DNA of 64,000 bases from Bacillota bacterium (GCA_021781745.1 JAJXWH010000008.1:26781-90780), one strand, 5' to 3'; counted from the first letter of the stretch, positions 4,162-23,071 are shown. Notes: generated from the sequence alone by a model not told the origin. A program made the numbers and translations.

Positions 4162-4170
4162 GGTTAGATT

Positions 4171-4554: not shown

Positions 4555-4556
4555 CT

Positions 4557-6410
4557 GTGAAAGAAAATGGGAAATTTAAAAGCTATAATGAATCATATAT
4601 AAGAAATGTTTTTAGGATAATTTTTATAGCCAGTGCAATTATATCTTTTGCAGTGATAGCTACAGGATTATTAGGATATAACAGTACTAAAAAATCATTA
4701 ATAGATAAATTAAAGTCCCAGGACATGGTTTTTATAGTAAAATCTATGGCGGCAAAAATAGACAGTCGTATTAGTCGTGCCGTTGAAACATCTTCTATTT
4801 TTGCTAAAGATCCTTTAAATATTGAATGGATAAATAGTGAAGAAAAAGATAAGGAAGCAGGAAATTTAGTTTTAAATAAAATAGATAGTATTGCAAAATC
4901 ATATGATTACAGTAATTCTTTTATAGCAAGTATAAAGACAAGGCACTATTATTATAGAGAGAATTCAGGTGAAAATAATAAAGGCTTTGTGACATTATCA
5001 GAAAGTAATCCAGCAGATAGCTGGTTTGATGCAATGATAAAATCAAAAAAGGCCATAGAGCTTAATGTAGATTATAATAGGAATATGGATGATTATTTTC
5101 TTTTTGTAAATACAATTATGGGAAGCGTAGATAAACCAGTAGGAATAACTGGAGTCGGTTTAAGTCTTAATGAGATTACAAAGGAATTTAGAGATTTTAA
5201 AGTCGGAAATAAAAGCAATCTATGGATGGTAGATGATGAGGGCGTTATAAAATTATCTGATGCACGTGAAGATATAGGTAAAAATTATGAAGATTTCCTA
5301 CCAAAAGATGTGGTTAATGTGATTCGGAGTAAGCCTATGGAAGGTGAAGAAAATGTTAAGGTATCACAATATACTAATAGTAATAATGAAATTATAGATT
5401 ACGCGTATTGTAAATTAAGTTCAAGCGACTGGATTCTGTTTTATGAAATTCCGCGAACAGAAAATTTGTCTTTAATTGATACACTAAAAAATAATACAAT
5501 TCTTAATGTGATTTTAGTTTTAATATCATTCATGGTATTATTCTACGTTATTTCTAAGAAAATAGCTGATCCATATAAGCAAGCAATGCTAATTAATATG
5601 GAGCTTGAAGAGAAAGTTAATACAAGAACCCAAGAGTTAAAAGAATCTAATCAAAAAGTAAATGATAGCATAGAATATGCAAAAAGACTACAGGAATCAA
5701 TTTTACCATCTGAAGAAGATTTGAAAAGAGCATTTAAAGAAAATTTTGTTATTTGGAAACCTAAAGATACTGTTGGAGGAGATTTCTTCTGGCTGCAGGA
5801 AATTGATGATATGATTATCTTAGCCGTTGGAGATTGTACAGGTCACGGAGTTCCAGGTGCATTCATGACAATGACTGTAAATGCAATATTGCATAATATA
5901 GTAACAACAATAAGTAACGATGACCCAAGTATAATTATTAAAGAGCTGCATACACAGCTTAAGCAATCTCTAAATAAAAATTCAAATCCAAATAGTGTAG
6001 ATGATGGCTTGGATATTGCAATATTTTGTATAAAAAATAAATCAAAGTTACTGTACCTAGGTGCAAATATAGAATTATATGTTAAACGCGATAAAGAAGT
6101 TAAAATTATAAAGCCTCAGAGCAAAGGGGTTGGCTATAGTTATATTAAGTTAAAAGAGTCTTTAGATAATGATATTTTTGAAATTCAAGAGGATGATATA
6201 TTTATTGTCACTACTGATGGTTTTATACATCAAAATGGAGGTGCAAAGAATTATCCTTTTGGAAGAAAACGACTATATAATATGCTAAAAGAATGTTCCA
6301 CTGAGGATTTTAATTCTATGAAAGCTAATTTTGAAGCAACATTAGGATTATATATGAATAAAGAGCAACAAAGAGATGATATTACTGTATTTGCATTTAA
6401 AGTAAAATAA
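4557..6410 (+). CDS. siaA: SiaA-like Cache sensor / SpoIIE (PP2C) phosphatase
   Basis: TM - extracellular Cache-like domain - TM - coiled coil - PP2C motifs GDCTGHGVPGA, DDGLD, TTDG, QRDDIT. Confidence 0.85.
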   Translation: MKENGKFKSYNESYIRNVFRIIFIASAIISFAVIATGLLGYNSTKKSLIDKLKSQDMVFIVKSMAAKIDSRISRAVETSSIFAKDPLNIEWINSEEKDKEAGNLVLNKIDSIAKSYDYSNSFIASIKTRHYYYRENSGENNKGFVTLSESNPADSWFDAMIKSKKAIELNVDYNRNMDDYFLFVNTIMGSVDKPVGITGVGLSLNEITKEFRDFKVGNKSNLWMVDDEGVIKLSDAREDIGKNYEDFLPKDVVNVIRSKPMEGEENVKVSQYTNSNNEIIDYAYCKLSSSDWILFYEIPRTENLSLIDTLKNNTILNVILVLISFMVLFYVISKKIADPYKQAMLINMELEEKVNTRTQELKESNQKVNDSIEYAKRLQESILPSEEDLKRAFKENFVIWKPKDTVGGDFFWLQEIDDMIILAVGDCTGHGVPGAFMTMTVNAILHNIVTTISNDDPSIIIKELHTQLKQSLNKNSNPNSVDDGLDIAIFCIKNKSKLLYLGANIELYVKRDKEVKIIKPQSKGVGYSYIKLKESLDNDIFEIQEDDIFIVTTDGFIHQNGGAKNYPFGRKRLYNMLKECSTEDFNSMKANFEATLGLYMNKEQQRDDITVFAFKVK

Positions 6411-6482
6411 AGCACAATCAAGAAAATAATAAATTAGTATGCTATTTTCTTAATTGTGCTCAAGTTTGGGGTGATATATATT

Positions 6483-7232
6483 ATGGTATCAATTAAATCT
6501 GATTTTTTTGAAGTTGAAAAATCCTTATTAAGTGGTGCAAAAGAATTAATTAATAGTAATAAATATGATGAAGAGACTATATTAGAAAACTTTTCAATAA
6601 TTGTTGAGCAATTTGATAAGTTAATAAGAGATGTTGAGAAGATAATTAAAATAAGCGATGGGCAGCAAGAATATCTTCATAGAATACAAAATGACTTAAA
6701 AAAAGAAATTGAAGATAGAATTAGGGCAGAAGAGAAATTGAAATATTTTGCAGCAATAGATACACTTACGGGTTTTTATAATAGAGGAATGGGATTAACA
6801 CTGCTGGAAAATGAGATTAAAACAATACGAAGGAAAAAGGGCGTTTTTTCAATATGCTATATTGACCTTAATGGGCTAAAATATGTAAATGATAATTTTG
6901 GACACGCAGAGGGAGACGAACTTCTGGTAAATGCATGTGAATTTATAAAAGAAGGCGTAAGAGATAATGACATTTTATGCAGAGTAGGCGGCGATGAGTT
7001 TATAATTCTTTTACCGGAGCTTAAGCAAGAAGAAGTAGAAAAGATTATGGAGAAGATTATGATGAATATAGATATTGAAAATAAAAGTCAAATAAGACCT
7101 TATGATCTCTCTTTCAGCTATGGAATAGTTCAAGTCGAATGTAATAATTGCAGAACTATTGATGAGATTATTCAAATGGCAGATGCAAATATGTATGAGT
7201 ATAAGAAAAAGCATAAAAAATTAATGCAATAA
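6483..7232 (+). CDS. siaD: SiaD-like diguanylate cyclase
   Basis: N-terminal coiled coil plus GGDEF with RxxD I-site (RDND). ATG 6483 follows GGGGTGA. Confidence 0.85.
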   Translation: MVSIKSDFFEVEKSLLSGAKELINSNKYDEETILENFSIIVEQFDKLIRDVEKIIKISDGQQEYLHRIQNDLKKEIEDRIRAEEKLKYFAAIDTLTGFYNRGMGLTLLENEIKTIRRKKGVFSICYIDLNGLKYVNDNFGHAEGDELLVNACEFIKEGVRDNDILCRVGGDEFIILLPELKQEEVEKIMEKIMMNIDIENKSQIRPYDLSFSYGIVQVECNNCRTIDEIIQMADANMYEYKKKHKKLMQ

Positions 7233-8845: not shown

Positions 8846-9260
8846 TCAAAACATTTTTACATTTGCTTTAAAAAAATAGTAGAGTTCTTTAAGTCTGAAA
8901 AATATTTATGACAATTTATTAAAGACGCATGTTTGTATTAGAACCAGTAATAACTGTGAATACAGAAGGGTTTAAAGTTGATATAGGGATAATTCTTGAG
9001 CATATAAAAAAGAAGATAGACTTGCTGGAAACATGGATGAAAGAATTTAATCAAGTCTCTTCAGTAGCGTGTTTAGGAGGTACGAATGTTGAATTATCCC
9101 ATATAGATATATATGATATATGTTGATATTTAAGAAGACATAGGTAGCAAAAAAGTCCAAGGTATATGAAGTAGATACTGAAGCCTAAGAATACTATTTT
9201 TTGAAATTTAGAGAGCGGATATTTAAAAATGTGAAAAAAGTGTTAATTTTATGTAAAACA

Positions 9261-9289
9261 TTGAATTTATTTCCTTATTATGCTATAAT
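9261..9289 (+). promoter_or_regulatory. SigA promoter with extended -10
   Basis: TTGAAT-17-TATAAT, preceded by TGn. Confidence 0.7.
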
Positions 9290-9342
9290 AAAACAGTCAA
9301 AATAATTGAATTAAGATGGTAGATTTCTTGGACTTTATGCTA

Positions 9343-9540
9343 TGGTGATGCGCCGTGGTGGAGATTTGTTAAATACACATCATCAGGTTGAGCGCAATTC
9401 ACTGCGCTTACCAATACTGTTCACTTTGTATTGGTGCTACGCTGAAGAGCCACAACCCAATAATAGAATAGTTAGCAAGAAATTTATCTAATATAAAATT
9501 AGGATTATCTCCAGTTCTATTTAAGGGGGTAATCTCTTTT
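9343..9540 (+). ncRNA. Candidate structured leader RNA/riboswitch with terminator
   Basis: GC-rich island with several perfect stems forming a multibranch junction, followed by a G-U-containing hairpin and U-tract. Confidence 0.6.
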
Positions 9541-9628
9541 GCTATAAAATATATATTTTTTATAAATCTAAACATGTATAGTGATAAAATATGTATTTTA
9601 ATCAAAAAATTAGAGAGGGATGTAATAC

Positions 9629-10186
9629 ATGTGGGCAAAATTTCTAAAGGAATATTTTAAATCACCAAGAACGATAGGAGCTGTTGCACCTAGTTCAGGA
9701 AAGCTTGCTGAAAAAATGGCTGATGATATTGATTATGAAAACGCAAAATGTATTGTGGAGTATGGTCCGGGAACTGGTGTGTTTACAGAAAAATTAGTAA
9801 GTAAAATTAAAAAGCATACAATGTTAATACTTATTGAGTATAATGAGGGATTCTGTAAACAGTTAAAAGAAAAATATAGTTCTTATGACAATATTGTAAT
9901 CGTAAATGATTCAGCTGAAAATATTGATAAATATTTAAAAAAATATAATATTGAAAAAGTAGATTATATAGTTTCGGGATTACCATTTGCTAGTTTACCA
10001 AAAAATATGTCAAATAATATATTAAAGAAGACTAAAAATATATTAAAGAAAGATGGCTTGTTTATTACTTTTCAATACACACTACTTAAAAAAGGTTATA
10101 TAGCAAGTTATTTTGAAGATATAAGTTTTGAAAGAGTTGTTTTTAATTTACCGCCAGCTTATGTGTTAAAGTGTCAAAATACATAA
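9629..10186 (+). CDS. Phospholipid N-methyltransferase (PmtA-like) class I SAM methyltransferase
   Basis: SPRTIGAVAPSS, VEYGPGTG, SGLPF, FITFQY. Confidence 0.85.
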   Translation: MWAKFLKEYFKSPRTIGAVAPSSGKLAEKMADDIDYENAKCIVEYGPGTGVFTEKLVSKIKKHTMLILIEYNEGFCKQLKEKYSSYDNIVIVNDSAENIDKYLKKYNIEKVDYIVSGLPFASLPKNMSNNILKKTKNILKKDGLFITFQYTLLKKGYIASYFEDISFERVVFNLPPAYVLKCQNT

Positions 10187-10503
10187 ACTAAGTTTGGCTT
10201 ATTATTTACTAAATAAGGGTTATGCATTTACTTTTGTTGCTAAAGATTTATATAGTGTTTCCAAAGTTTATAAGCGTACAATTATAATTAAGAAACGCAA
10301 TCATTTAAATCTTAAATGCAGTATTATGTAGAAGTATAGCTTTTATTTTTGTATAGATATGTTGTTGCGTATTATGGGTTATAGGAGGAGAATTTTATAT
10401 TTTATAACATAAACACCAAAATATGCACAAGATTCATATTATAGACTTTTTTATTTACAGCGATTATAATATGTGTAAACAAACATAATAGTTGGGGGTA
10501 TTT

Positions 10504-10950
10504 ATGGACACAATGGACTATAAAATATTAAAATGTTTGAAATCTAATGCAAGAAATAAAGCATCAGATATAAGTAAAGAAATTCATTTATCTGTTTCAG
10601 CAGTCATTGAACGCATAAGAAAAATGGAGAAGAATGATATAATTAAAAATTATACTATAATAGTAGATCAAAAAAAATTAGGAAATGATATGACTGCCTT
10701 GATGGAAGTCAGCCTTGAACATCCAAAGTTCTATGAATCTTTTACAAATGCCATTCAAAATAACCCTAACATTGTCTCATGTTATTACTTAACAGGAGAT
10801 TTTGATTTTATGCTTAAAATATTCTGCAAATCATCAGATCATCTTGAAAGAATTCACCGAGAAATAAAGAGTTTAGAAGGTGTATCATTAACAAAAACTC
10901 ATTTTGTTTTAAAAGATATAAAAAATATATTCAGCGTAATACCTGATTAA
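10504..10950 (+). CDS. Lrp/AsnC family transcriptional regulator
   Basis: N-terminal HTH (ARNKASDISKEIHLSVSAVIERIRKME) plus RAM domain (LTGDFDFMLK). Confidence 0.92.
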   Translation: MDTMDYKILKCLKSNARNKASDISKEIHLSVSAVIERIRKMEKNDIIKNYTIIVDQKKLGNDMTALMEVSLEHPKFYESFTNAIQNNPNIVSCYYLTGDFDFMLKIFCKSSDHLERIHREIKSLEGVSLTKTHFVLKDIKNIFSVIPD

Positions 10951-10975
10951 AAGAATAAGGCATGTGAAAATTGGA

Positions 10976-11007
10976 TTGCGTATCTTTTTTATAAAAAAGA
11001 TACGCAA
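10976..11007. terminator. 32-bp perfect palindrome after lrp (terminator or operator)
   Basis: TTGCGTATCTTTTTT-AT-AAAAAAGATACGCAA. Confidence 0.6.
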
Positions 11008-11158
11008 AAATTTTCTTACTTTTACACTAAAAATTAACAAAAAGCAAAAAAGTTTCTGCATAAATAGTATTAACAATAAAAATAACTGTAATTCTAAAAA
11101 ATATTGAAAAATTCTTTTGTGGAATATAAGATATGAATAAGACAATGGTTTATTGTAC

Positions 11159-11225
11159 AAGCCAGATATATTTTAGACAAAGAAGTCAATTTTCATAGTC
11201 TAAAATATATCTGGCTTTTATTTTA
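11159..11225 (+). promoter_or_regulatory. Terminator-like hairpin in the dat leader
   Basis: Perfect 20-bp inverted repeat (11159-11178 / 11198-11217) plus U-rich tail, just upstream of the dat SD. Confidence 0.65.
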
Positions 11226-11249
11226 TAGAATATTAGGAGGCAGATTATT

Positions 11250-12098
11250 ATGGAGAATTTAGGTTATTATAATGGGAAATATGGATTGTTAGAGGAAATG
11301 ACAATACCAATGAACGATCGTGTATGTTATTTTGGTGATGGAGTTTACGACGCTACTTATAGCCGAAATCATGTGATTTTTGCATTGGACGAGCATATTG
11401 AACGTTTTTTTAATAGTGCTGGTTTATTAAAAATAAAAATTCCTTATACAAAAGAACAAGTTAAGGAAATTCTTAAGGATATGGTGAAAAAGGTTGATTC
11501 TGGAGAACAATTTGTATATTGGCAGGTTACAAGAGGAACAGCAATGCGTAACCATGCGTTTCCAGGTGATGAGGTTCCAGCAAATTTATGGATTATGCTA
11601 AAACCATTAAATATTAAAGACATGTCACAAAAAATAAAACTAATTACATTAGAGGACACAAGATTTTTACATTGTAATATTAAGACATTGAATTTACTTC
11701 CTAGTGTAATGGCTGCTCAAAAAACTGAAGAGGCAGGGTGCCAGGAATCTGTATTCCATAGAGGGACTAGAGTAACTGAATGCGCTCATAGCAATGTGTC
11801 TATTTTAAAAGATGGTATCTTGAAAACTGCACCAACAGATAACTTGATTTTACCAGGTATAGCACGAGCTCATCTAATAAAAATGTGTAAATTGTTTAAT
11901 ATACCTGTAGATGAAACCGCATTTACATTAAAAGATTTAATGGAAGCTGATGAAGTTATAGTTACTAGTTCAGGTCAATTTTGTATAACTGCTTGTGAAA
12001 TAGATGGAAAACCTGTTGGAGGAAAGGCTCCAGAGCTTATAAAGAAATTACAGGATGCTCTTCTAAAAGAATTTTTAGAAGAAACAGAGGCAGAATAA
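11250..12098 (+). CDS. dat: D-amino acid aminotransferase (PLP fold IV)
   Basis: FGDGVY (Tyr31-like), RGTAMRNH (Arg98/His100-like carboxylate trap), NIKTLNLL (PLP lysine), ILPGIAR. Confidence 0.9.
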   Translation: MENLGYYNGKYGLLEEMTIPMNDRVCYFGDGVYDATYSRNHVIFALDEHIERFFNSAGLLKIKIPYTKEQVKEILKDMVKKVDSGEQFVYWQVTRGTAMRNHAFPGDEVPANLWIMLKPLNIKDMSQKIKLITLEDTRFLHCNIKTLNLLPSVMAAQKTEEAGCQESVFHRGTRVTECAHSNVSILKDGILKTAPTDNLILPGIARAHLIKMCKLFNIPVDETAFTLKDLMEADEVIVTSSGQFCITACEIDGKPVGGKAPELIKKLQDALLKEFLEETEAE

Positions 12099-12108
12099 GG
12101 AGGCATAT

Positions 12109-13182
12109 ATGAATCAAAAGGAATTGACAATATTCAATTTGGGTGAGAATTTGGACAACCTAATGAATTTGGATCCAAGAGGGTATGGTGTATGCCGCAT
12201 TTTATATTCTGCTTCAAGGGAGTATACAAAGGAACCATTAACTACAAATGCAGCAAAAAAACTAGTAGGAATTTTAAAAGATGGCGATTTAGTTTATATA
12301 ATGACTGGCTTCGTACTGCTTCCGTTTAAGAAAGCAGAAATGGATGGAATTGTTAGTTCTATGCTTTTAGCAAGATCTTTAATTAAAGCTTTTAATGTAA
12401 AGCCAGTAATTGTATGTCCAGAAGATAATATGGAGGCTGTGAAAAACTTAGCTCAGGTTATGGGATTGCACTTCTATGATACTATAGAGGAATTAAAGGA
12501 ATATCCAATATCAATATCTGCTGTAGCTTTTACAAAGGATGTAAATGAAGCAGGGAAGCAGGCAGATGAAATGATTTCTAAGGGGTTGCCTAGCGCTGTT
12601 ATAAGCATTGAGTGCCCAGGTGCTAATTCCATTGGAACTTATCATAATGCAGTAGGTCTAGATGTAACTGAATTAGAAGCAAAACAAGATATTTTATTCA
12701 CTAAATTACAGGACAAGGGAGTTCTTAATATAGCAATAGGAGATCTTGGCAATGAAATTGGTATGGGAGCTATTAAAGAGCAATTAGAAGAATTTATTCC
12801 GTATGCAGCTAAAGGGAAATGTAACTGTGGATGTAATGGAGGCATTGCAGCAGTCACAAAAGCAGATAATATTATAACAGCTACTGTTTCTGATTGGGGA
12901 TGTTATGGTTTAATTGCTGCTATTGCTTATTTAAAGAAAGACTTAGAAATTCTGCATACAAAAGAAATGCAGGAAGAAGCAATGATTGTTGCTTCAAGAA
13001 GTGGAATGATTGATATGTATGGTTGGCTTGTCCCTGCAATTGATGGTTTTGGTCTATCATTGAACCTTTCAATGGTTAATTTAATGAGAGAATGCGTATC
13101 TTATGCTATAAAATTAGAAAAAACATGTGAAACTTGGTTTGAGAAAGTTATTGAGCTAGGTTTTTATGAAAAAGTTATGTAA
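12109..13182 (+). CDS. DUF4392 protein (similar to D-glutamate cyclase C-terminal domain)
   Basis: TGF..AEMDG, SIECPG, IAIGDLGNEIGMG, TVSDWGCYG. Confidence 0.8.
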   Translation: MNQKELTIFNLGENLDNLMNLDPRGYGVCRILYSASREYTKEPLTTNAAKKLVGILKDGDLVYIMTGFVLLPFKKAEMDGIVSSMLLARSLIKAFNVKPVIVCPEDNMEAVKNLAQVMGLHFYDTIEELKEYPISISAVAFTKDVNEAGKQADEMISKGLPSAVISIECPGANSIGTYHNAVGLDVTELEAKQDILFTKLQDKGVLNIAIGDLGNEIGMGAIKEQLEEFIPYAAKGKCNCGCNGGIAAVTKADNIITATVSDWGCYGLIAAIAYLKKDLEILHTKEMQEEAMIVASRSGMIDMYGWLVPAIDGFGLSLNLSMVNLMRECVSYAIKLEKTCETWFEKVIELGFYEKVM

Positions 13183-13275
13183 GAAGTGTTAAAATAATTG
13201 GATGGGAAGTTAATATTTTTTCGAGGTGAATATGTCTAACAATGAAATTATGCCAAGGGTAAGGGGGAATATAGA

Positions 13276-14061
13276 ATGAATTATTCGAAAATGATACCCA
13301 GTGAAATTCGTGATTTAATACGTGAAGGTAAAATAGCAGGGCCAACATCAGGAATGTGTGCGGGTTATGCACAATCTAATTTAGTTATTCTGCCAAAGGA
13401 TTTAGCGTATGATTTTCTTCTGTTTGCGCAAAGGAACCCAAAATCATGTCCTATATTAGAAGTCAGCGATGCGGGGAGTAGAAGTCTTAAGTATATTGCA
13501 GAAAATGCTGATATTGCCAAAGATATTCCTAAATATAGAGTGTATGAAGATGGTATACTAACTGGGGAATATACTAGTGTAGAGCATCTATGGAGAGAGG
13601 ACTTTGTAAGTTTCTTAATAGGGTGTAGTTTTTCTTTTGAATCAGAACTATTAGAAGCTGGAATACCTGTAAGGCATATTGAGGAAAATTGTAATGTACC
13701 TATGTTTATAACTAATATAGAGTGTGAACCAGCAGGAATATTTAATGGAAAAATGGTCGTAAGCATGAGGCCCATTCCATACGATAAAGTTGTAAAATCA
13801 GTAATGGTAACAGGTACAATGCCTAAGGTACATGGAACTCCAATTCATATAGGAGATCCATCAGTTATTGGAATTTTAGATATTAATAAGCCTGATTTTG
13901 GAGATTGTGTTACAATAAATAAAGGAGAAGTACCAGTTTTTTGGGCTTGCGGAGTTACACCACAATCTGTAGTTATGAATGTTAAGCCTAAAATTGTAAT
14001 TACACATTCTCCAGGACACATGCTTATAACCGACATTAAGAATGTGGATTTAAAATACTAA
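13276..14061 (+). CDS. DUF1445/YcsI putative hydro-lyase (similar to D-glutamate cyclase N-terminal domain)
   Basis: PTSGMCAGYAQSNL, RNPKSCP, IGCSFSFE, HGTPIHIG, FWACGVTPQ, THSPGHM. Confidence 0.9.
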   Translation: MNYSKMIPSEIRDLIREGKIAGPTSGMCAGYAQSNLVILPKDLAYDFLLFAQRNPKSCPILEVSDAGSRSLKYIAENADIAKDIPKYRVYEDGILTGEYTSVEHLWREDFVSFLIGCSFSFESELLEAGIPVRHIEENCNVPMFITNIECEPAGIFNGKMVVSMRPIPYDKVVKSVMVTGTMPKVHGTPIHIGDPSVIGILDINKPDFGDCVTINKGEVPVFWACGVTPQSVVMNVKPKIVITHSPGHMLITDIKNVDLKY

Positions 14062-14068
14062 AAGTTAT

Positions 14069-14195
14069 TTCAGTTAAAAGTTAAAAGTGAAAAGTTAAGG
14101 AAAAAATACCTTAAGGGATTTTAAAAATAAAATTCAAGAAAGCCAGAGGCTTTCAACTTAAACTGTAAACTGTTAATTGCAAACTGTTAACTGAA
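14069..14195. repeat. REP/MITE-like palindromic element with 7-bp periodic arms
   Basis: Terminal IR TTCAGTTAA / TTAACTGAA, heptamer runs on both arms, internal GAAAGCC-AGA-GGCTTTC hairpin; related copy at 44345-44450. Confidence 0.65.
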
Positions 14196-14207
14196 GAAGG
14201 GGGACTT

Positions 14208-14975
14208 ATGTATAAGATAGATTTAAATTGTGATTTGGGAGAGAGTTTTGGAAATTATAAACTTGGTTTAGATGAGGAAGTAATCTCATATATTTCTTCT
14301 GCTAATGTGGCATGTGGTTTTCATGCATCAGATCCACTTGTAATGTCTCATACAGTTAAATTGGCTAAGGAAGCTGGTGTATGCATCGGAGCACATCCAG
14401 GTTTTCCAGACTTAGTTGGCTTTGGGAGACGAAATATGAGTGTATCGCCAAAGGAAGCTAAGGCTATGGTAATATATCAAATTGGTGCTTTAGATGCTTT
14501 TTGCAAAGCTGCAGGAATAAAGATGCATCATGTAAAACCTCATGGAGCTTTATATAATATGGCAGGGAAGGATTTGAAACTTGCAAAAGCTATTTGCGAA
14601 GGAATATATGAATTAAATCCTGAATTGATTTTATTAGCCTTATCAGGAAGCGAAATGGTTAATGCTGCACAAGATATTGGATTAAAAGTAGCAAGGGAAG
14701 CTTTTGCTGATCGTGCTTATGAAGAGGATGGTTCTTTGGTTGCAAGAACTAAAGAAGGAGCGATGATCACAGATGAGGAAATTGCAATCAAGAGAGTTAT
14801 TAAAATGATAAAGGAAAATAAGGTTGAAGCTATCACGGGGAAAGATATACAAATTAAAGTTGATTCTATATGCGTTCACGGAGATGGAGCTAAGGCTTTA
14901 GAATTTGTAAAGAAAATTAAATGCAGTCTTGAAGGCGAAGATATAAAAATTGCTCCGTTAATCGAAGTAATTTAA
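14208..14975 (+). CDS. pxpA: 5-oxoprolinase subunit A (LamB/YcsF)
   Basis: [39 protein letters not shown]. Confidence 0.95.
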
Positions 14976-15003
14976 TTATGTTATATATAAAGAAGGCTTA
15001 ATT

Positions 15004-16131
15004 ATGGAAAAATATCTTAGAACTTATGCCAAAATAGATTTAAAGGCTATTTTAAATAATATAAATGAAATAAAAAATCGAATAGAAAAAGATGTAAAAA
15101 TTATGGCTGTTATTAAAGCAGATGGATATGGTCACGGTGCAGATGCTTTGGGAGATTTTCTTAAAAATGAAGTGGATTATTATGGAGTGGCTACTATAGA
15201 TGAGGCTATAGAACTTCGGAAATTTGGAATAGAGTTACCTATAATGATTCTTGGTTACACATCTCCAAGTCAATATATTGAAATAATAGAAAATAATATT
15301 ACTCAAACTATATACACTTTGGAAATGGCTAAAGAAATATCAAAAGCTGCTTCAATTTGTGGGAGGCAGGCCAAAATTCATGTAGCATTAGATACAGGTA
15401 TGACTAGAATAGGTTTTAATGCAAATGAAAATGGAGTTTTAGCCATAGCTGATATTTGCAAGCTTCCTAATTTAATCGTTGAGGGTTTATTTACCCATTT
15501 TTCAACTGCCGATGAAATTGACAAAAGCTATAGCAAATTGCAAATGGATAGATATGATAGTTTTGTAGAGTTATTAGAACAAAGGAAAATAAGTATACCT
15601 ATTAAGCATATGTGTAATAGTGCTGGAATTATGGAATTTGACCACCACCGTTTTGACATGGTACGAGCTGGTATAATTCTTTATGGATTATATCCATCAG
15701 AAGAAGTTAATAAAAATTCCGTTAAGCTCATACCAGCTTTAGAGTGGAAAGCTCATGTAATCAATGTGAATACTGTTGATGCAGGACATGGGGTAAGTTA
15801 TGGAAAAACTTATATTACAAAAAATAAGACTAAGATAGCAACTATTGGAGTAGGATATGCTGACGGATACCCAAGAGCTCTTTCATCAAAAGGAAGGGTA
15901 TTGATCCATGGTGAATATGCTCCTATTATAGGCAGAATCTGCATGGATCAAATGATGGTAGATGTTACACATATTAATAATGTAGAAATTGAAGATGAAG
16001 TAACTTTAGTAGGAAAAGATGGGAAGAATATTATTTCTGTTGAAGAATTAGCTAATATGGCTGGAAGTTTCAATTATGAATTTGTTTGTGGAATAGGGAA
16101 AAGGGTTCCTAGGATATATAGTAATGAATAA
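15004..16131 (+). CDS. alr: Alanine racemase
   Basis: AVIKADGYGHG (PLP Lys), DTGMTRIG, VSYG (catalytic Tyr), GYADG, ICMDQ. Confidence 0.95.
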   Translation: MEKYLRTYAKIDLKAILNNINEIKNRIEKDVKIMAVIKADGYGHGADALGDFLKNEVDYYGVATIDEAIELRKFGIELPIMILGYTSPSQYIEIIENNITQTIYTLEMAKEISKAASICGRQAKIHVALDTGMTRIGFNANENGVLAIADICKLPNLIVEGLFTHFSTADEIDKSYSKLQMDRYDSFVELLEQRKISIPIKHMCNSAGIMEFDHHRFDMVRAGIILYGLYPSEEVNKNSVKLIPALEWKAHVINVNTVDAGHGVSYGKTYITKNKTKIATIGVGYADGYPRALSSKGRVLIHGEYAPIIGRICMDQMMVDVTHINNVEIEDEVTLVGKDGKNIISVEELANMAGSFNYEFVCGIGKRVPRIYSNE

Positions 16132-16176
16132 TTTAGAAGCCAATTTTGCTATATAATTTTTGGGGGTAATGTAAAT

Positions 16177-16887
16177 ATGGAAAAGGATAAGCTTAGAACA
16201 AAAATTTCACAAATAAATGAATTTACAGCTTTAATTGAGTTTGGAAATGAAATTAGTGAAATCATAAACAGGAAAATAAGAGTTTTTTGTGCATATATTG
16301 ATGAACATCCATTTGAAGGTTTCATAGAATATATTCCTTATTTTGCAAGTGTTTCTGTAATTTACGATCCTTTAAAAATAAATAGTGATTTTCCTTTTGA
16401 GACTATTAAAGTTATTTTAGAAGATATCTTATCAAGTCTTGATTTTTCATCAAGTGATGAGGAAAATATCGTTGAAATCCCAGTTTGCTATGGCGGTGAG
16501 TTTGGACCTGATCTTGAGTATGTTGCAAAAATAAATAATCTTAATGTAGAGGAAGTTATAAAAATTCATTCAGAAGGAAAATATTTAGTCTATATGATAG
16601 GTTTTGCACCTGGATTTCCTTATTTAGGCGGAATGTCAGAAAAAATAGCTGCGCCAAGGCGTGAATCTCCAAGAACAGTAATTCCAGCAGGCTCAGTTGG
16701 AATTGCAGGAGCTCAGACAGGAGTATATCCGATTGAGACTCCTGGAGGATGGCAGCTTATAGGAAGAACACCTATAAAGATGTTTGATTTAAACGGAGAG
16801 CCTAAGAGTCTTTTAAAATCTGGAGATATAGCTAAATTTCGTCCAATTTCTTATGAAGATTACCTAAGATTAAAGGAGGATGAATAG
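16177..16887 (+). CDS. pxpB: 5-oxoprolinase subunit B (KipI)
   Basis: EIPVCYGGEFGPDL, GFAPGFPYLGG, GVYPIETPGGWQLIG. Confidence 0.95.
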   Translation: MEKDKLRTKISQINEFTALIEFGNEISEIINRKIRVFCAYIDEHPFEGFIEYIPYFASVSVIYDPLKINSDFPFETIKVILEDILSSLDFSSSDEENIVEIPVCYGGEFGPDLEYVAKINNLNVEEVIKIHSEGKYLVYMIGFAPGFPYLGGMSEKIAAPRRESPRTVIPAGSVGIAGAQTGVYPIETPGGWQLIGRTPIKMFDLNGEPKSLLKSGDIAKFRPISYEDYLRLKEDE

Positions 16888-17885
16888 TGAGCATTACTGT
16901 TTTAAATCCAGGACTTCTTACTACTATTCAGGATTTGGGGAGAATTGGGTATCAAAAGTATGGAGTTATAGTCAGTGGGGCTATGGATACATATTCCATG
17001 AGGCTTTCTAACATTATTATTGGTAATAATGAAAATGAAGGAGTTCTTGAAATAACTATGGTCGGACCCTCATTAGAATTGCTAAAGGGAACGTTATTTT
17101 CCATAACAGGTGCAGATATTTCACCTACAATTAATAACAAGCCTGTCCCTATGGGGAGACCTGTTTATTTAAAGAAAGACTGTATATTAAAATTTGGACC
17201 CTGCAAAACTGGATGCCGCTCATATTTAGCTGTAGCGGGAGGCTTTGATATTCCATTAGTTATGGGCAGCAAAAGTACATATTTAAGAGCTGGTTTAGGC
17301 GGGATTGAAGGAAGAGCATTAAAAAGAGACGATGTGCTTAATATTGGTACTAGAAACAAACTGTCTCGCAAACTAATAGATAAGATGAAAGAAATAAAGA
17401 GTGAAGAGGAATTTGTTGCAACAAGATGGTATGTACAAGGTTATAAAGGATCTTCTAATAGCAAAATTATTAGGGCTTTTGAAGATAGACAATATAAGGA
17501 AATATCTCATGAGAGTATTGCTAAATTCTTTAATGAAGAGTTCAACATAGATTCTAAATCTGATAGAATGGGATATCGTTTAGCAGGTCCTAAAATTGAG
17601 CTAAGAGAAAAACTAGAAATGATATCTGAAGAAGTTTCTATGGGAACTATTCAAGTTCCACCTGATGGAAATCCTATTATCCTTTTGGCTGATAAACAAA
17701 CTGCGGGAGGATATCCTAAAATAGCTCATGTAGCTTCTGTAGATATTCAAAAAATAGTTCAATTAAAACCAAATGAGAAAATTGCCTTTAAAAAGATTAC
17801 GATAAAAGATGCTGAAGATTTATATTTAAAAAGAGAAAGGTACTTAGAGGCTTTAAAGAGATCTATAAAATTAATAATTATTTAA
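16887..17885 (+). CDS. pxpC: 5-oxoprolinase subunit C (KipA)
   Basis: TTIQDLGR, GAMD, SDRMGYRL, GTIQVPPDG, QTAGGYPKI. Start overlaps the pxpB stop. Confidence 0.95.
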   Translation: MSITVLNPGLLTTIQDLGRIGYQKYGVIVSGAMDTYSMRLSNIIIGNNENEGVLEITMVGPSLELLKGTLFSITGADISPTINNKPVPMGRPVYLKKDCILKFGPCKTGCRSYLAVAGGFDIPLVMGSKSTYLRAGLGGIEGRALKRDDVLNIGTRNKLSRKLIDKMKEIKSEEEFVATRWYVQGYKGSSNSKIIRAFEDRQYKEISHESIAKFFNEEFNIDSKSDRMGYRLAGPKIELREKLEMISEEVSMGTIQVPPDGNPIILLADKQTAGGYPKIAHVASVDIQKIVQLKPNEKIAFKKITIKDAEDLYLKRERYLEALKRSIKLIII

Positions 17886-17919
17886 AGAAAACATATTTTT
17901 ACTTTAATAAATAATTATA

Positions 17920-17948
17920 TTTACACAGGTAATTTTTAGTAGTATAAT
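17920..17948 (+). promoter_or_regulatory. SigA promoter for the AGCS gene
   Basis: TTTACA-17-TATAAT. Confidence 0.65.
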
Positions 17949-17977
17949 ATAATCAAAATTAAAATAGTATGAAATTG

Positions 17978-18040
17978 AAATCTATAATAATAGGACAAAG
18001 AAGTCTTAAGCGTTCTATTATTATAGATTTTTTTATTTTT
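17978..18040 (+). promoter_or_regulatory. Terminator-like hairpin in the AGCS leader
   Basis: 19-bp IR (17978-17996 / 18012-18030, one G-U) plus long U-tract, between promoter and SD. Confidence 0.65.
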
Positions 18041-18065
18041 TATATATGTTTAAGGAGGAATTGCT

Positions 18066-19499
18066 ATGGAATTATTTTCAAACGTTTTATCGCAAATTGA
18101 TGATTTTGTATGGGGGCCAGTTATGCTCATACTGCTAGTAGGAACAGGGATTTTTCTTACGATACGCTTGAAATTCTTGACTTGGATAAATTTAGGCTAT
18201 GCATTAAAAAGTGTTTTAAGTAAAGAAGCGCGTACTAAGAAAAGAGGAGATGGAGATGTTTCACCATTTTCAGCGCTTATGACAGCACTTGCAGCAACTA
18301 TTGGTACTGGTAATATTGTTGGAGTGGCTACTGCAATGGTACTTGGAGGACCAGGAGCCCTTGTATGGATGTGGATTTCTGCATGTTTTGGTCTTAGTTC
18401 TAAATTTGGTGAATGTATGCTTGCTATAAAGTATCGTCAAGTGAATGAAAATGGAGAAATGTCTGGCGGACCTATGTACACAATGAAGCATGCGTTTAAA
18501 AATAAAACATTTGGAAATTTTATGGGCTTCTTATTTGCCTTATTTACAGTATTAGCTTCTTTTGGTATTGGTAACTTAACACAAGCTAATTCGATTTCAT
18601 CGGCTTTAAATCAGACATTTAATTTACCAGTATGGGTAACTGGACTTGTTATTACAATTTTAGCTCTTATTATTATTGTTGGAGGCATTAGCAGTATTTC
18701 AAAGGTATCTCAAGTGGTAGTGCCAGGTATGGCTGTATTCTATATGGTAGCAGGCATAATTGTTATATTGGGAAATATAGGAAATCTTCCTAGTGGAGTA
18801 GCAACTATATTTAAAATGGCATTTAGCCCACAAGCTGCAGCAGGTGGTGTTGGTGGAACAATCATGGTTAGTATGATGCAATCATTAAGATGGGGTGTTG
18901 CAAGAGGTGTTTTTTCAAATGAAGCAGGTCTAGGGTCAGCAGCCATAACTGCCGCTGCAGCAACAACTGATAATCCGGTTCGTCAAGGATATATTAATAT
19001 GACAGGGACTTTTTTTGATACAATAGTTGTATGTACAGTAACTGGCCTTGCAATAGCAAGTTCTGGAGTGCTTGGTACATTAGATGCATCAGGAAATGTT
19101 ATTACTGGGTCAGCTCTTACAATTTTAGCGTTTTCAACTGTTCTTGGAAATGCTGGTGGTGTTGTTGTATGTATAGGAATTGCACTTTTTGCTTTTTCCA
19201 CTATTATTGGTTGGGAGTATCATGGAGAAAAGGCTTTTGAGTATCTTGTTAAAAATCCAAAATATTGTATAATATATCGTGTTATTTTTTCATTAGTTGC
19301 ATACATTGGAGCTACTACAACTTTACAAATTGTATGGAATTTTTCAGATGTTATGAATGGTCTAATGGCAATTCCTAATTTAATTTCACTTTTAGCGTTA
19401 AGTAGTGTAATCGCAAAAGATGTTAAAGAATATCAAAGTATTATTGAACAAGAGAAAATGGAAAAAAGAAATGCTAAAGTAATGGAACTTGAGAGTTAA
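18066..19499 (+). CDS. Alanine/glycine:cation symporter (AGCS) family transporter
   Basis: LAATIGTGNI, GGPGALVWMW, GGPMY, FSNEAGLGS. Confidence 0.93.
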   Translation: MELFSNVLSQIDDFVWGPVMLILLVGTGIFLTIRLKFLTWINLGYALKSVLSKEARTKKRGDGDVSPFSALMTALAATIGTGNIVGVATAMVLGGPGALVWMWISACFGLSSKFGECMLAIKYRQVNENGEMSGGPMYTMKHAFKNKTFGNFMGFLFALFTVLASFGIGNLTQANSISSALNQTFNLPVWVTGLVITILALIIIVGGISSISKVSQVVVPGMAVFYMVAGIIVILGNIGNLPSGVATIFKMAFSPQAAAGGVGGTIMVSMMQSLRWGVARGVFSNEAGLGSAAITAAAATTDNPVRQGYINMTGTFFDTIVVCTVTGLAIASSGVLGTLDASGNVITGSALTILAFSTVLGNAGGVVVCIGIALFAFSTIIGWEYHGEKAFEYLVKNPKYCIIYRVIFSLVAYIGATTTLQIVWNFSDVMNGLMAIPNLISLLALSSVIAKDVKEYQSIIEQEKMEKRNAKVMELES

Positions 19500-19550
19500 T
19501 ATTATTAATATAACTTTAAATAGTCTAAGAGTTATAATGTATATTGCTAA

Positions 19551-19590
19551 AGGTGTCTTAAGTGATTGTAATCATCTAGGGCACCTTATT
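19551..19590. terminator. Probable bidirectional terminator
   Basis: AAGGTGTCTTA...TAGGGCACCTT between convergent genes. Confidence 0.55.
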
Positions 19591-21268: not shown

Positions 21269-21471
21269 AATTGTGAAAAAATAAAAAAATACAGAAAATA
21301 ATTAAAATAGTATTGATTTATGAAGGAAAGTATTGTACATTAAGTATGTAAAATAAAGAGCTATATATTGCAGAATCAGTACTGTATGTTATTTTTGTAT
21401 TGTTATCATTAAGATAGTGGTATGTAAAAAGAGATTAATGTACTAGTATGCCATATATAAATAATGAAATT

Positions 21472-21543
21472 TTACCCGTATATGCTTAGAAATAAGGTCT
21501 AAGCGTCTCTACCGGACTACCGTAAATTGTCTGACTATGGGTG
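21472..21543 (+). ncRNA. Purine riboswitch aptamer, guanine-type (C74)
   Basis: P1 ACCCGUA/UAUGGGU; P2 GCUUAGA/UCUAAGC with loop ending GG; J2/3 UCUCUAC; L3 CCGUAAA; GAC-UAU discriminator C. Confidence 0.95.
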
Positions 21544-21565
21544 TTTATAAGTATTTTGATAGCTT

Positions 21566-21733: not shown

Positions 21734-23071
21734 TTGGACAATGTATCAAAAAAAACGGTAAAAACAATGGAGGAGAACGGTATGTTAGAAAAATTATTTC
21801 ATTTATCAAAAAACAATACAACTGTTAAGACAGAAATATTAGCTGGTATTACAACTTTTTTAACTATGGCATATATTTTAGTGGTTAATCCAGGTATTTT
21901 AAGTCAATCAGGGATGGATAAATCGGCAGTATTTACAGCAACAGCTTTAGCTTCTTGTATTGGAACTTTAATTATGGCTTTTGTTGCAAATTATCCATTT
22001 GGTATGGCACCAGGAATGGGGTTAAATGCTCTTTTCACATTTACAATTTGTTTAACAATGAAGTTTTCATGGCAAACAGCATTAGCGGCTTCATTAATAG
22101 AAGGACTTATATTTTTAGCGCTTAATTTATTTAAAGTTAGGCAGGCAATTATTGATAGTGTTCCACAAACTTTAAAATATGCGATCAGCATAGGTATTGG
22201 ATTTTTTATAGCTTTTATCGGATTACAAGATTCAGGTATAATTGTAGCTAATCAAGCTACATTAGTTGGTTTAGCTAGTTTAAAGAGTGTAACAGTTTTG
22301 TTAGCATTCTTTGGAGTAGTATTAATTGCAGTATTATATCACAAGAATGTAAAAGGATCATTTATTATAGGTATGCTTGTTGTATATGTACTTGGTATAA
22401 TATTTGGAGTGGCTCAGTTACCAAGCGGAATAGTATCTATGCCTCCATCGGTTGCACCAGTATTTATGCAATTTGATTTTAAGAGCGCTATGGTAATAGG
22501 AATAATTCCAGCTATTATGACTATGTTATTTATAGATATATTTGATAGTATTGGTACTTTAATTGGTTTAGCTTCAAAAGCTGGATACTTAGATGAAAAA
22601 GGTAATGTTCTTAATGCAGATAAAGTTTTAACAGCAGATGCTGTTGGATCAACAATAGGTGCTTGTTTAGGAACTTCTACACCAGTTGCATTTATTGAAT
22701 CAGCTTCAGGTATTGCTGAAGGTGGAAGAACTGGTTTAGCTGGGTTAACAATAGCTGCATTATTCTTCTTATCATTATTCTTTTCACCAATATTAACTGT
22801 TATTCCTGGTTTTGCATCAGGTCCAGTTCTAATTGTTTTAGGATTACTAATGATGGAACCAATAACAAAGATTGATTTTTCAGATTTTACTGAAGGATTA
22901 CCTGTATTCCTTACTTTAATATTAACACTTTTAACATATTCAATTACAGATGGTTTAGCATTTGGATTTATATCATATGTGTTAATAAAAATATTTACAG
23001 GTAAATCAAAAGAGGTTCCTGTTTCAATGTATGTTATTTCAGTATTATTTATAGTAATGTTTGCTATTTAA
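21734..23071 (+). CDS. NCS2/AzgA-family guanine/hypoxanthine permease
   Basis: TEILAGITTFLTMAYI, APGMGLNA, IESASG, GGRTGL. Two SD-backed starts (TTG 21734, ATG 21782). Confidence 0.93.
   Translation: MDNVSKKTVKTMEENGMLEKLFHLSKNNTTVKTEILAGITTFLTMAYILVVNPGILSQSGMDKSAVFTATALASCIGTLIMAFVANYPFGMAPGMGLNALFTFTICLTMKFSWQTALAASLIEGLIFLALNLFKVRQAIIDSVPQTLKYAISIGIGFFIAFIGLQDSGIIVANQATLVGLASLKSVTVLLAFFGVVLIAVLYHKNVKGSFIIGMLVVYVLGIIFGVAQLPSGIVSMPPSVAPVFMQFDFKSAMVIGIIPAIMTMLFIDIFDSIGTLIGLASKAGYLDEKGNVLNADKVLTADAVGSTIGACLGTSTPVAFIESASGIAEGGRTGLAGLTIAALFFLSLFFSPILTVIPGFASGPVLIVLGLLMMEPITKIDFSDFTEGLPVFLTLILTLLTYSITDGLAFGFISYVLIKIFTGKSKEVPVSMYVISVLFIVMFAI

Follow-up and report, generated by a model that had tools for sequence, protein, structure and literature searches.

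Why would an anaerobe keep the two halves of an animal D-glutamate cyclase as separate genes, beside one enzyme likely to supply their substrate and another likely to be their partner? The question is raised by a 64,000-nucleotide stretch of DNA from a Bacillota bacterium (GCA_021781745.1 JAJXWH010000008.1:26781-90780; this whole stretch is called the window here), in which positions 10,504 to 19,499 hold nine genes in one orientation: lrp, dat, the genes of a DUF4392 and a DUF1445 protein, pxpA, alr, pxpB, pxpC and agcS. We know of no other place where the cyclase halves stand apart in this way next to a D-amino-acid transaminase (Dat) and the 5-oxoprolinase PxpABC. D-Glutamate and D-alanine are the main D-amino acids from bacterial cell walls. 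To our knowledge, strict anaerobes lack the oxygen- or quinone-dependent D-amino-acid oxidases; how they use the two compounds is poorly known, and the cluster, carried by Clostridia of soil, mud, rumen and human gut, offers a lead. All of its proteins come from known families and nothing among them is categorically new; the arrangement and a leader element are undescribed. Family membership, active-site residues, clustering, a covarying leader element and signs of co-transcription in a relative were computed. The reading that we favour, and to which we give slightly less than an even chance, is a conserved clostridial regulon for alanine-type uptake and for the use of D-amino-acid nitrogen and carbon, which would pass through D-glutamate and 5-oxoproline to L-glutamate.

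Conservation of the cluster in Clostridia

One genome per species was scanned with a DUF4392 alignment, which gave 550 genomes with a relative, and the best 80 loci by DUF4392 (identity at least 61%) were examined. All 80 belong to Clostridia (Clostridium sensu stricto, Oscillospiraceae, Acutalibacteraceae, Lachnospiraceae, Faecousia and others). We mapped the window's nine proteins onto these loci, of which 76 were judgeable for dat and 54 for DUF1445, the pxp genes and alr; individual related loci are cited below by L numbers. In 66 of the 76, dat is the gene immediately upstream of DUF4392. DUF1445 is present in 52/54 loci, pxpB with pxpC in 51/54 and pxpA in 48/54, all four of these genes occur together in 48/54, and alr was found in 32/54. 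The sequence-only reading had considered the interleaving of dat and alr unusual; by these counts it is instead the standard form of the cluster in Clostridia.

The cluster comes in two gene orders. Order A, dat-DUF4392-DUF1445-pxpA-(alr)-pxpB-pxpC, is that of the window and is found exactly in 13 loci, and the second is dat-DUF4392-pxpB-pxpC-DUF1445-pxpA-(alr). Both keep the pairs dat-DUF4392, DUF1445-pxpA and pxpB-pxpC, in Clostridium, Oscillospiraceae, Acutalibacteraceae and Lachnospiraceae alike, and DUF1445 always adjoins pxpA. That these adjacencies outlast two gene orders, together with the long contigs at L013 described below, supports the earlier proposal that the genes form one functional unit. 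A DUF1445 sequence cluster of 2,822 members belongs to a tightly packed seven-gene form from an abundant gut lineage.

Since the arrangement recurs in dozens of species, chance falls far short of explaining it. All of the families are well known from roles of their own, and one could imagine that a pxp operon, a spare alr and a dat had merely come to lie side by side, with no pathway in common. However, the set recurs co-oriented and tightly packed in two gene orders, and a leader element is common to the cluster and the importer; juxtaposition by chance is effectively refuted by this conservation and we give it next to no credence.

Genes for regulation and transport also recur around the core. 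In about 20 related loci the gene directly upstream of dat is of the Lrp type. AgcS is encoded near the cluster in eight loci besides the window, in six of them at 73-88% identity and in two at 44-47%, and at least 13 loci, C. beijerinckii included, have a LivKHMGF-type ATP-binding cassette (ABC) importer nearby, whose LivK-type substrate-binding protein (SBP) resembles Leu/Ile/Val/Ala-binding proteins. Seven loci hold a small P-loop 'cytidylate kinase-like' gene (PF13189) that has no counterpart in the window; it recurs between the cluster and the Liv-type importer, at 7795-8418 in L081 and directly upstream of dat in L027, L053, L066, L070, L072 and L075.

A leader hairpin shared by the dat unit and the importer

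On the plus strand, a candidate attenuator precedes dat (11156-11230). It has a stem of about 20 bp (11161-11217) with the tip GACAAAGAAGTC (11176-11187) and a U-run, and ends about 20 nucleotides (nt) before the dat ribosome-binding site (RBS); RNAfold gives it -30.2 kcal/mol, and our covariance model R1 scores it at 75.1 bits (E 8.4e-10). A second copy precedes agcS (17975-18044, plus strand; R1 55.7 bits, E 2e-6), with a hairpin at 17980-18027 whose 14-bp stem, ATCTATAATAATAG / CTATTATTATAGAT, carries the same tip GACAAAGAAGTC (17994-18005) and is again followed by a U-run. The exact 12-mer occurs just twice in the 64 kb, in these two leaders, and the chance expectation at up to one mismatch is 0.24.

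The element is also found in the relatives. The motif GAC-R-A-W-G-R-W-GUC followed by a T-run has 27 instances in about 1.4 Mb of related loci plus the window, and all 27 precede dat, a LivK-type SBP gene or agcS, the last of these once on the opposite strand. R1 recovered 23 instances at E ≤0.005 and found two additional agcS leaders. Loci with the element are, besides the window, L001-L006, L008, L011, L018, L021, L022, L025, L034, L042, L052, L061 and L081; it stands before agcS also in L021, L022, L025, L052 and L034, and in C. beijerinckii-like genomes the hairpin precedes the LivK-type ABC operon. In C. tyrobutyricum and some other relatives it is absent or plain.

Several measures point to a structured RNA. 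The stem positions pair in 81.6% of cells on the model-fitted alignment, compared with 35-51% when the partner is slid, and 14 of the 17 stem pairs have compensatory changes on both sides across the 23 instances. The covariation score of 0.459 (0.19 for shuffled alignments) was reached by 0/500 shuffles. All of these figures, pairing included, are somewhat inflated by the fitting of the alignment to the structure. Single-sequence folds formed the hairpin in 20/20 leaders. RNAalifold on a MAFFT alignment of the leaders saw an invariant 3-bp GAC/GUC helix only, because MAFFT mis-registered the variable stems. G-U pairs are frequent in the stems, so pairing is preserved only in the sense-strand RNA. 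At Rfam 15 gathering scores no family was found in the locus, and at E values up to 10 there were only sub-threshold miRNA-like hairpins.

We read the leader hairpin as a transcription attenuator, a marker of the regulon that is common to the enzyme unit and the importer. The shared element ties the alanine-type importers and the enzymes together as one regulon, and the GAC-N6-GUC hairpin is a candidate for a new, previously undescribed cis-regulatory RNA of amino-acid transport and catabolism genes. Only about 25 nt of unconserved leader precede the hairpin, and no classical antiterminator is visible there. We also considered whether the inverted repeat might be an Lrp-type DNA operator, and rejected this: changes in the arms between species are compatible with G-U pairing, the sense RNA alone stays paired, and the U-run always follows. 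An additional role of the repeat as DNA, beside that of the RNA hairpin, is possible.

Gene products and their active sites

All nine co-oriented open reading frames (ORFs) of the sequence-only reading were recovered in place on the plus strand, and their families agree with our assignments, made with Pfam and NCBIfam. The lrp gene (10505-10950, plus strand) starts at an ATG after a GGGGG RBS-like stretch, although the mechanical ORF runs from a TTG at 10492. Its product has the helix-turn-helix and the RAM/ligand-binding domain of the Lrp/AsnC family (PF01037, 72.6 bits; PF13412, 47.3 bits) and scores far under the equivalog cut-offs, at 83.6 bits against 233 for E. coli Lrp (NF008370) and 227 for AsnC. 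By these scores the regulator is a member of the Lrp/AsnC family and not Lrp proper.

The product of dat (11250-12098, plus strand; PF01063, 149.9 bits) is a class-IV aminotransferase, of the fold-type IV that binds pyridoxal phosphate (PLP), and is nearest to D-amino-acid transaminase (DAAT). TIGR01121 gives 247.4 bits, below the cut-off of 277.45, yet this is the top family, above the BCAT and PabC models. Alignment to the DAAT of Bacillus sp. YM-1 (E 2e-55; structures 1DAA/3DAA/3LQS) confirmed what had been said of the carboxylate trap, namely that Y31, R98 and H100 are kept, and the catalytic K145 and E177 are kept as well. The alr product (15004-16131, plus strand) is a canonical PLP-dependent alanine racemase of fold-type III (TIGR00492, 386 bits, cut-off 168) with both domains (PF01168, PF00842). 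It matches structures deposited as alanine racemase with E 2.7e-103 (PDB 4Y2W) and E 1e-98 (4LUS/4LUY), and the alignment to 4Y2W shows both VIKADGYGHG, with the PLP-binding Lys, and SYG, with the catalytic Tyr. The sequence-only reading had called this gene a second alr; no further alr was found in the rest of the 64-kb window.

The DUF4392 protein (12109-13182, plus strand; PF14336, 304.2 bits) has its homologue in the C-terminal half of the animal D-glutamate cyclase and matches the structures of the archaeal protein TON_0340 with E 1e-18 to 2e-19. Its E77 and D79 align with the AETDG motif of TON_0340 (E59, D61), of which E59 is named in the paper on that protein (PMC5132392). In four more aligned motifs stand E168, D212, E216 and D312, which we take to be the remaining four metal ligands; all six acidic putative ligand residues are invariant in alignment A1. 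The clostridial proteins have an insertion, G-K-C-N-C-G-C-N-G-G (residues 236-245), that TON_0340 is without, and its C238, C240 and C242 are invariant in A1, as are C29, C103, C265 and C340 elsewhere in the protein. The CxCxC insertion may hold an extra metal or Fe-S site. The family is small, with 1,568 clusters at 50% identity; among its 150 best-scoring representatives the lengths are mostly 320-385 residues, like the window protein, and none is a DUF1445-DUF4392 fusion of about 600 residues.

The DUF1445 protein (UPF0317 or YcsI type; 13276-14061, plus strand; PF07286, 231.3 bits) corresponds in the same way to the N-terminal half of the animal cyclase. It scores 416.9 bits with NF003969, 'putative hydro-lyase' (cut-off 324), and is 51-54% identical to 2PIF; the Cys residues in its GCSFSFE and ACGVTPQ motifs are kept as far as Pseudomonas and Agrobacterium. 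At NCBI the two proteins are still named 'DUF4392 domain-containing protein' and 'putative hydro-lyase'. A model of the DUF1445 protein has a weak match to the NrpR-like MJ0159 (3NEK; TM score 0.34-0.39, E 5e-4). NrpR-type repressors are sensors of 2-oxoglutarate, and this match may hint at a fold that binds C5 dicarboxylates.

All three PxpABC subunit families are present and clustered. They are encoded on the plus strand by pxpA (LamB/YcsF family; 14208-14975; PF03746, 357.1 bits; NF003814, 383.6 bits, cut-off 226), pxpB (KipI-type, CT_C_D; 16177-16887; PF02682, 247.5 bits; TIGR00370, 243.7 bits, cut-off 145.55) and pxpC (KipA-type, CT_A_B; 16887-17885; PF02626, 298.8 bits; TIGR00724, 308.6 bits, cut-off 230.2), the GTG start of pxpC overlapping the pxpB stop. 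With the equivalog NF045499, PxpC reaches 250.1 bits, under the cut-off of 500. Lastly, agcS (18066-19499, plus strand) encodes an Na+/alanine(-glycine) symporter with the Na_Ala_symp domain (TIGR00835, 466.8 bits, cut-off 272.65) that aligns over residues 4-463 with 6CSE, the AgcS of Methanococcus maripaludis (6CSE/6CSF; E 4.6e-136). We take 6CSE/6CSF to be structures that hold L- and D-alanine.

Directly 3' of pxpC, about ten order-A loci have a gene whose product resembles biotin carboxyl carrier protein (BCCP), with the VMKL biotinylation motif, and a gene for a biotin carboxylase (BC): L081 of C. beijerinckii (15676-17503), L013 of C. tyrobutyricum, and L003, L008, L009, L012, L014, L021, L025 and L034. 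In L022 the BCCP gene alone follows pxpC, and in the window agcS does. Between the gene orders (L017-L080), PxpB and PxpC are 35-50% identical to those of the window, compared with 60-81% for Dat, DUF4392, DUF1445 and PxpA, and either the PxpBC pair has changed much faster or a different lineage has taken its place. Combined with PxpB and PxpC, the two added proteins would recreate a split urea-carboxylase architecture, which hints that some PxpABC-type enzymes are biotin-dependent.

This opens an alternative in which the Pxp-like proteins are a biotin-dependent, urea-carboxylase-like carboxylase or hydrolase of lactams or amides that acts on another cyclic amide, a compound processed by the DUF proteins, with D-glutamate or D-alanine merely the end product handed to Dat and Alr. 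The BCCP and BC genes after pxpC would fit such an enzyme (contigs from C. tyrobutyricum suggest their co-transcription with pxpB and pxpC), and so would the divergence of PxpB and PxpC and the low equivalog score of PxpC; moreover, in mycobacteria a BCCP's biotin is bound by PxpC/PxpB homologues, placed for carboxylation (PMC13012033). Yet PxpA and PxpB score above curated NCBIfam cut-offs for 5-oxoprolinase subunits, the window cluster is without a BC or BCCP gene, and the sole known activity of DUF1445 with DUF4392 concerns D-glutamate as well as 5-oxo-D-proline (PMC5339696). We consider this alternative very unlikely.

Predicted transcription units

The genes had been described as a single Lrp-linked operon, and this did not hold: a terminator after lrp, and a promoter and leader hairpin of agcS's own, predict a layout of three units, lrp / dat-DUF4392-DUF1445-pxpA-alr-pxpB-pxpC / agcS. 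Upstream of lrp a consensus scan predicts a promoter-like site, TAGACT-17-TATAAT (10442-10470, plus strand; 10/12 matches). The terminator scan places an intrinsic terminator after the gene (10976-11007, plus strand), with a perfect 14-bp stem, a 4-nt loop and A/T-rich sequence behind. The dat unit has a promoter-like site TTGAAA-17-TAAGAT (11104-11132, plus strand), whose -35 context TATTGAAAAA is kept in relatives (judged from 20 related loci by comparison of their upstream regions), and the predicted agcS promoter, TTTACA-17-TATAAT (17920-17948, plus strand), is with 11/12 matches the best of the whole region. Between convergent agcS and a minus-strand metallophosphoesterase gene, a possible weak hairpin, AAGGTG...CACCTT (19550-19587), was noted by eye; the terminator scan made no call there.

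From dat to pxpC the gaps are short, save for a 146-nt spacer before pxpA (14062-14207), with a GC-rich hairpin GAAAGCCAGAGGCTTTC at 14138-14154 and AAACTGT(T)AA repeats at 14160-14193. A gap of about 150 nt is found only in the window and in Clostridium sp. LS (L004), and in most relatives it measures about 13-40 nt. Short pieces of the spacer match further contigs of the source metagenome, and it may be a small dispersed intergenic repeat.

In C. tyrobutyricum (L013), one stretch from dat to pxpB (9176-14126) and another from pxpB to biotin carboxylase (14292-17312) are covered by metatranscriptome contigs, with adapter sequence at the outer ends and a strain polymorphism as the sole break, and lrp lies on a shallower contig of its own, apart from that of dat. 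The contigs carry no strand information and could derive from DNA; they thus support, and do not prove, co-transcription from dat to biotin carboxylase.

Expression of the cluster in plain-culture RNA-seq of a relative (X13, X14) would also suit a housekeeping function. Alr and Dat would then make D-alanine and D-glutamate for peptidoglycan by a Bacillus-type, MurI-independent route, and the DUF pair and PxpABC would clear or recycle the D- and L-5-oxoproline that arises from glutamate pools, or buffer excess D-glutamate. For D-glutamate and D-alanine, Dat and Alr are the classical pair of biosynthetic enzymes, as is well established from Bacillus Dat. PxpABC was reportedly discovered, by Niehaus in 2017, as a damage-repair enzyme. 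In B. subtilis, the DUF1445 gene ycsI follows ycsG within the pxpABC-containing operon, which is not known to include DUF4392 or dat. However, housekeeping leaves the attenuator-controlled, importer-linked expression and the dedicated Lrp-type regulator unexplained, and the cluster is patchy (the 1,568 DUF4392 clusters mentioned above), whereas peptidoglycan synthesis is universal. Supply and repair for the cell wall is an explanation that we find unlikely.

A proposed route from alanine to L-glutamate

What, then, could the genes do together? In the route that we favour, AgcS, or in relatives the LivK-type ABC importer, would bring in D- or L-alanine, which Alr would interconvert. Dat would convert D-alanine and 2-oxoglutarate to pyruvate and D-glutamate, and imported or recycled D-glutamate would be equilibrated as well. 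The split DUF4392/DUF1445 cyclase pair would then close D-glutamate to 5-oxo-D-proline, one of the DUF proteins or a relaxed PxpABC would bring about the change from D to L, and PxpABC with ATP would open the lactam to L-glutamate and thereby make the whole conversion irreversible. The net reaction would be D-alanine (or D-glutamate) + 2-oxoglutarate + ATP to pyruvate + L-glutamate, at one ATP per nitrogen assimilated into glutamate. The glutamine synthetase-glutamate synthase route has an equal ATP cost per nitrogen. Control would be by the adjacent Lrp/AsnC-type regulator and by the attenuator hairpin common to the leaders of the dat unit and the importer. All substrates, the direction of flux, the step of stereo-inversion and whatever reads the attenuator are what we infer here. 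That Dat interconverts D-alanine/2-oxoglutarate and pyruvate/D-glutamate, and that Alr interconverts the alanine enantiomers, is well established, as is the ATP-driven opening of 5-oxo-L-proline by PxpABC.

The oxoprolinase would be the only irreversible step, from lactam to glutamate, so a cyclase beside it is sensible under two conditions only: either (a) inversion takes place at the lactam stage, which gives an ATP-driven one-way conversion of D-glutamate to L-glutamate, or (b) the DUF pair opens the D-lactam and PxpABC the L-lactam. Since the co-regulated carriers are alanine- or LIV-type importers, alanine (D or L) is the probable input and (a) is favoured. The direction with alanine as input, as first proposed from the sequence, has become more plausible through the kinship of AgcS to 6CSE/6CSF, the leader that links importer and dat unit, and the precedent for Dat and D-glutamate in marine bacteria.

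As to how the labour is divided, our guess from gene pairing and motifs is that DUF1445 is the inverting enzyme (an epimerase) and DUF4392 the cyclase, because DUF1445 pairs with pxpA and has two conserved 'small-Cys-small' motifs, and DUF4392 pairs with dat and has a metal-binding cavity. A more specific version would be a 'lactam shuttle' for the irreversible inversion of D- to L-glutamate, made up of Dat, which would feed D-alanine and further D-amino acids into D-glutamate, a DUF4392 cyclase, a DUF1445 that is a cofactor-independent 5-oxoproline racemase, PxpABC, which in many species would draw on a dedicated BC and BCCP, and an attenuator RNA of a new class, which would switch enzymes and alanine importers together and sense the supply of D-amino acids directly or via a protein. 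As a joint claim this is doubtful. If true, both halves of human DGLUCY, and the widespread ycsI gene as well, would thereby gain a function.

Several observations weigh against the route from alanine. About 10 of the 76 clusters are without dat, with no replacement gene seen, and 22/54 are without alr; it follows from the loci without dat that the invariant core is DUF4392, DUF1445 and PxpABC, with the D-alanine branch outside it. A fold search with the AlphaFold model of DUF1445 (predicted local distance difference test score, pLDDT, 71) returned no racemase or hydrolase neighbour, only the protein's own family (2PIF, 3DB9) and the weak NrpR-like match. Animals excrete 5-oxo-D-proline, and mouse DGLUCY has both domains (PMC5339696), which argues, for animals at least, against either DUF protein as an efficient 5-oxoproline racemase. 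If the stereocentre were not inverted, cyclase and oxoprolinase together would form a futile cycle or lead to a dead end. By itself, Alr would take D-alanine to L-alanine, and Dat with Alr would take D-glutamate to 2-oxoglutarate and L-alanine, in both cases without ATP, so a branch that costs ATP is not obviously needed. Finally, no RNA run was found to contain the window's sequence, and in three metatranscriptomes of the source study zero contigs matched it.

In another reading the flux would run in the opposite direction, with D- and L-pyroglutamate as the substrates. PxpABC with ATP would open 5-oxo-L-proline, the DUF pair, as a reversible hydrolase, or a DUF-assisted D-specific oxoprolinase would open 5-oxo-D-proline, and Dat would drain the D-glutamate to 2-oxoglutarate and D-alanine, which Alr would turn into L-alanine. 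Every gene would then be non-redundant and no racemase required, the invariant core would be just the enzymes in question, and Dat plus Alr would be a cofactor-balanced drain for D-glutamate. C. difficile grows on 5-oxoproline through KipOTIA (bioRxiv 10.1101/2024.05.01.592088), an ATP-independent 5-oxoprolinase is on record (Nishimura 2000, as cited in a passage of PMC13274462), and hosts excrete 5-oxo-D-proline (PMC5339696), while the cluster is carried by gut lineages. The co-regulated transporters, however, are alanine- or LIV-type importers, and an SBP-dependent ABC importer cannot export; no known type of 5-oxoproline carrier (the NRAMP-like KipT/YcsG, or PxpT) is present; and alanine would be a product, which makes its co-induced uptake odd. 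Chemically, opening of the 5-oxoproline ring is only mildly unfavourable and could be driven by downstream pull. We regard pyroglutamate use as a serious minority candidate, and continue to prefer the route that starts from alanine.

Either way, the separate roles of DUF1445 (YcsI, common beside pxp) and DUF4392 (for which crystal structures exist) become testable through this cluster, which could reveal a third route of D-glutamate catabolism and could explain the fate of 5-oxo-D-proline in the gut.

Source of the sequence and flanking genes

The window's organism is a Clostridium with low GC content from the C. beijerinckii / C. chromiireducens group, with Clostridium sp. LS as the nearest genome (90-98% protein identity). 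The source is a mine-drainage metagenome, in which a single DNA contig spans 10978-19700 with zero differences; the assembly of the cluster is sound. In the public assembly graph there is a break at 10976-11007, the palindromic lrp terminator, where two contigs share just these 32 bases; this is an assembler artefact and no real junction. The GC content of the cluster is 0.32-0.35, against 0.27-0.29 in the flanks. Recent horizontal insertion was considered and is unsupported: the GC content is slightly raised, but the core synteny is genus-wide and the flanking genes are ordinary.

Those flanking genes are unrelated to the cluster and comprise a partner-switch/GGDEF set, a GNAT, a methyltransferase, a metallophosphoesterase and a purine riboswitch with a permease. 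The first of these, at 3607-7232, encodes a DUF6272 protein, a SiaC-family phosphoprotein, a Cache-SpoIIE (PP2C) phosphatase and a GGDEF diguanylate cyclase, and looks like a SiaABCD-like partner-switch module that controls c-di-GMP. The purine riboswitch aptamer (RF00167, 89 bits; 21456-21557) lies, as is ordinary, upstream of a xanthine/uracil-family permease gene (21734-23071); it is the window's sole Rfam hit at gathering scores.

Comparison with known systems

The leader element resembles those of ANTAR, PRD/RAT, HutP and small-riboswitch systems in that a terminator hairpin stands in the 5' leaders of several units of a regulon and a short conserved hairpin or loop (an xAxGxx hexaloop) overlaps the terminator. 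In contrast to these systems, it has no Rfam match, a second ANTAR-type hairpin is missing, and genes of the ANTAR, PRD or HutP type are absent from the neighbourhood. An ANTAR target was considered, as the loop has A and G at fixed positions, and was rejected for want of the second hairpin and of an ANTAR gene.

The closest enzymatic parallel is mouse DGLUCY (C14orf159), a DUF1445-DUF4392 fusion that converts D-glutamate to 5-oxo-D-proline (Ariyoshi 2017, PMC5339696; EC 4.2.1.48). The window has both domains (PF07286, PF14336) with the DUF4392 metal site intact, and by analogy the same conversion may take place. The organisation differs, however: the window has two ORFs, DUF4392 first, with a 93-nt gap, whereas DUF1445 is N-terminal in the fusion, and the second gene order parts the two by pxpB and pxpC. 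The clostridial DUF4392 has the additional invariant CxCxC insertion, and the clostridial pair has Dat, Alr and an ATP-dependent oxoprolinase around it, enzymes that in mammals are not linked to DGLUCY. Six split homologues of the human cyclase have been counted in gut bacteria (2025, PMC12547972). In our literature search, neither a D-glutamate cyclase from bacteria nor a 5-oxoproline racemase nor this cluster was the subject of any paper, and a 2025 curated catalogue of D-amino-acid genes mentions no cyclase.

With the PxpABC systems (B. subtilis ycsF-ycsG-ycsI-kipI-kipA, C. difficile KipOTIA and C. glutamicum PxpTABC) the window shares pxpA, pxpB and pxpC, and with B. subtilis also a DUF1445 gene that accompanies pxpA; ATP-dependent opening of the lactam is predicted by analogy. 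The homologues in C. difficile do act as 5-oxoprolinase (bioRxiv 10.1101/2024.05.01.592088). Unlike these systems, the window adds dat, DUF4392 and alr, has alanine-type importers in place of an NRAMP- or PxpT-type carrier, and is predicted to be controlled by an Lrp-type protein and an attenuator rather than by KipR, TnrA or PxpR. The likeness to urea amidolyase/urea carboxylase (BC, carboxyltransferase subdomains CT(A-D) and BCCP) lies in PxpC and PxpB, which are homologous to the CT subdomains, and in the separate BCCP and BC genes that relatives of the cluster add; the window itself lacks both, and its substrate would be other than urea.

For alanine, a comparison can be made with M. maripaludis, in which, as Moore and Leigh reportedly described in 2005, ald-alr-agcS are alanine-use genes and both enantiomers serve as nitrogen source. 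Alr and an AgcS symporter are common to both, but an alanine dehydrogenase there stands against Dat and a D-glutamate/5-oxoproline module in the window.

The nearest parallel to the whole proposed route comes from marine bacteria, in which D-alanine is catabolised via a D-alanine aminotransferase and DgcN/DgcA then act on D-glutamate (Yu 2022, 2023, as reported in a passage of PMC12363236). According to the same passage, DgcN/DgcA bring about N-acetylation, racemisation and deacetylation of D-glutamate, an 'irreversible racemization pathway' with a 'considerable energetic cost' (PMC12363236). By analogy, Dat would lead from D-alanine to D-glutamate in the clostridial cluster too, and D-glutamate would be turned into L-glutamate at the expense of energy. 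The enzymes are entirely different: the lactam would here be an intramolecular 'acylation', paid for with ATP instead of acetyl-CoA, and the hosts are anaerobic Firmicutes, in contrast to the aerobic marine Proteobacteria that carry DgcN/DgcA.

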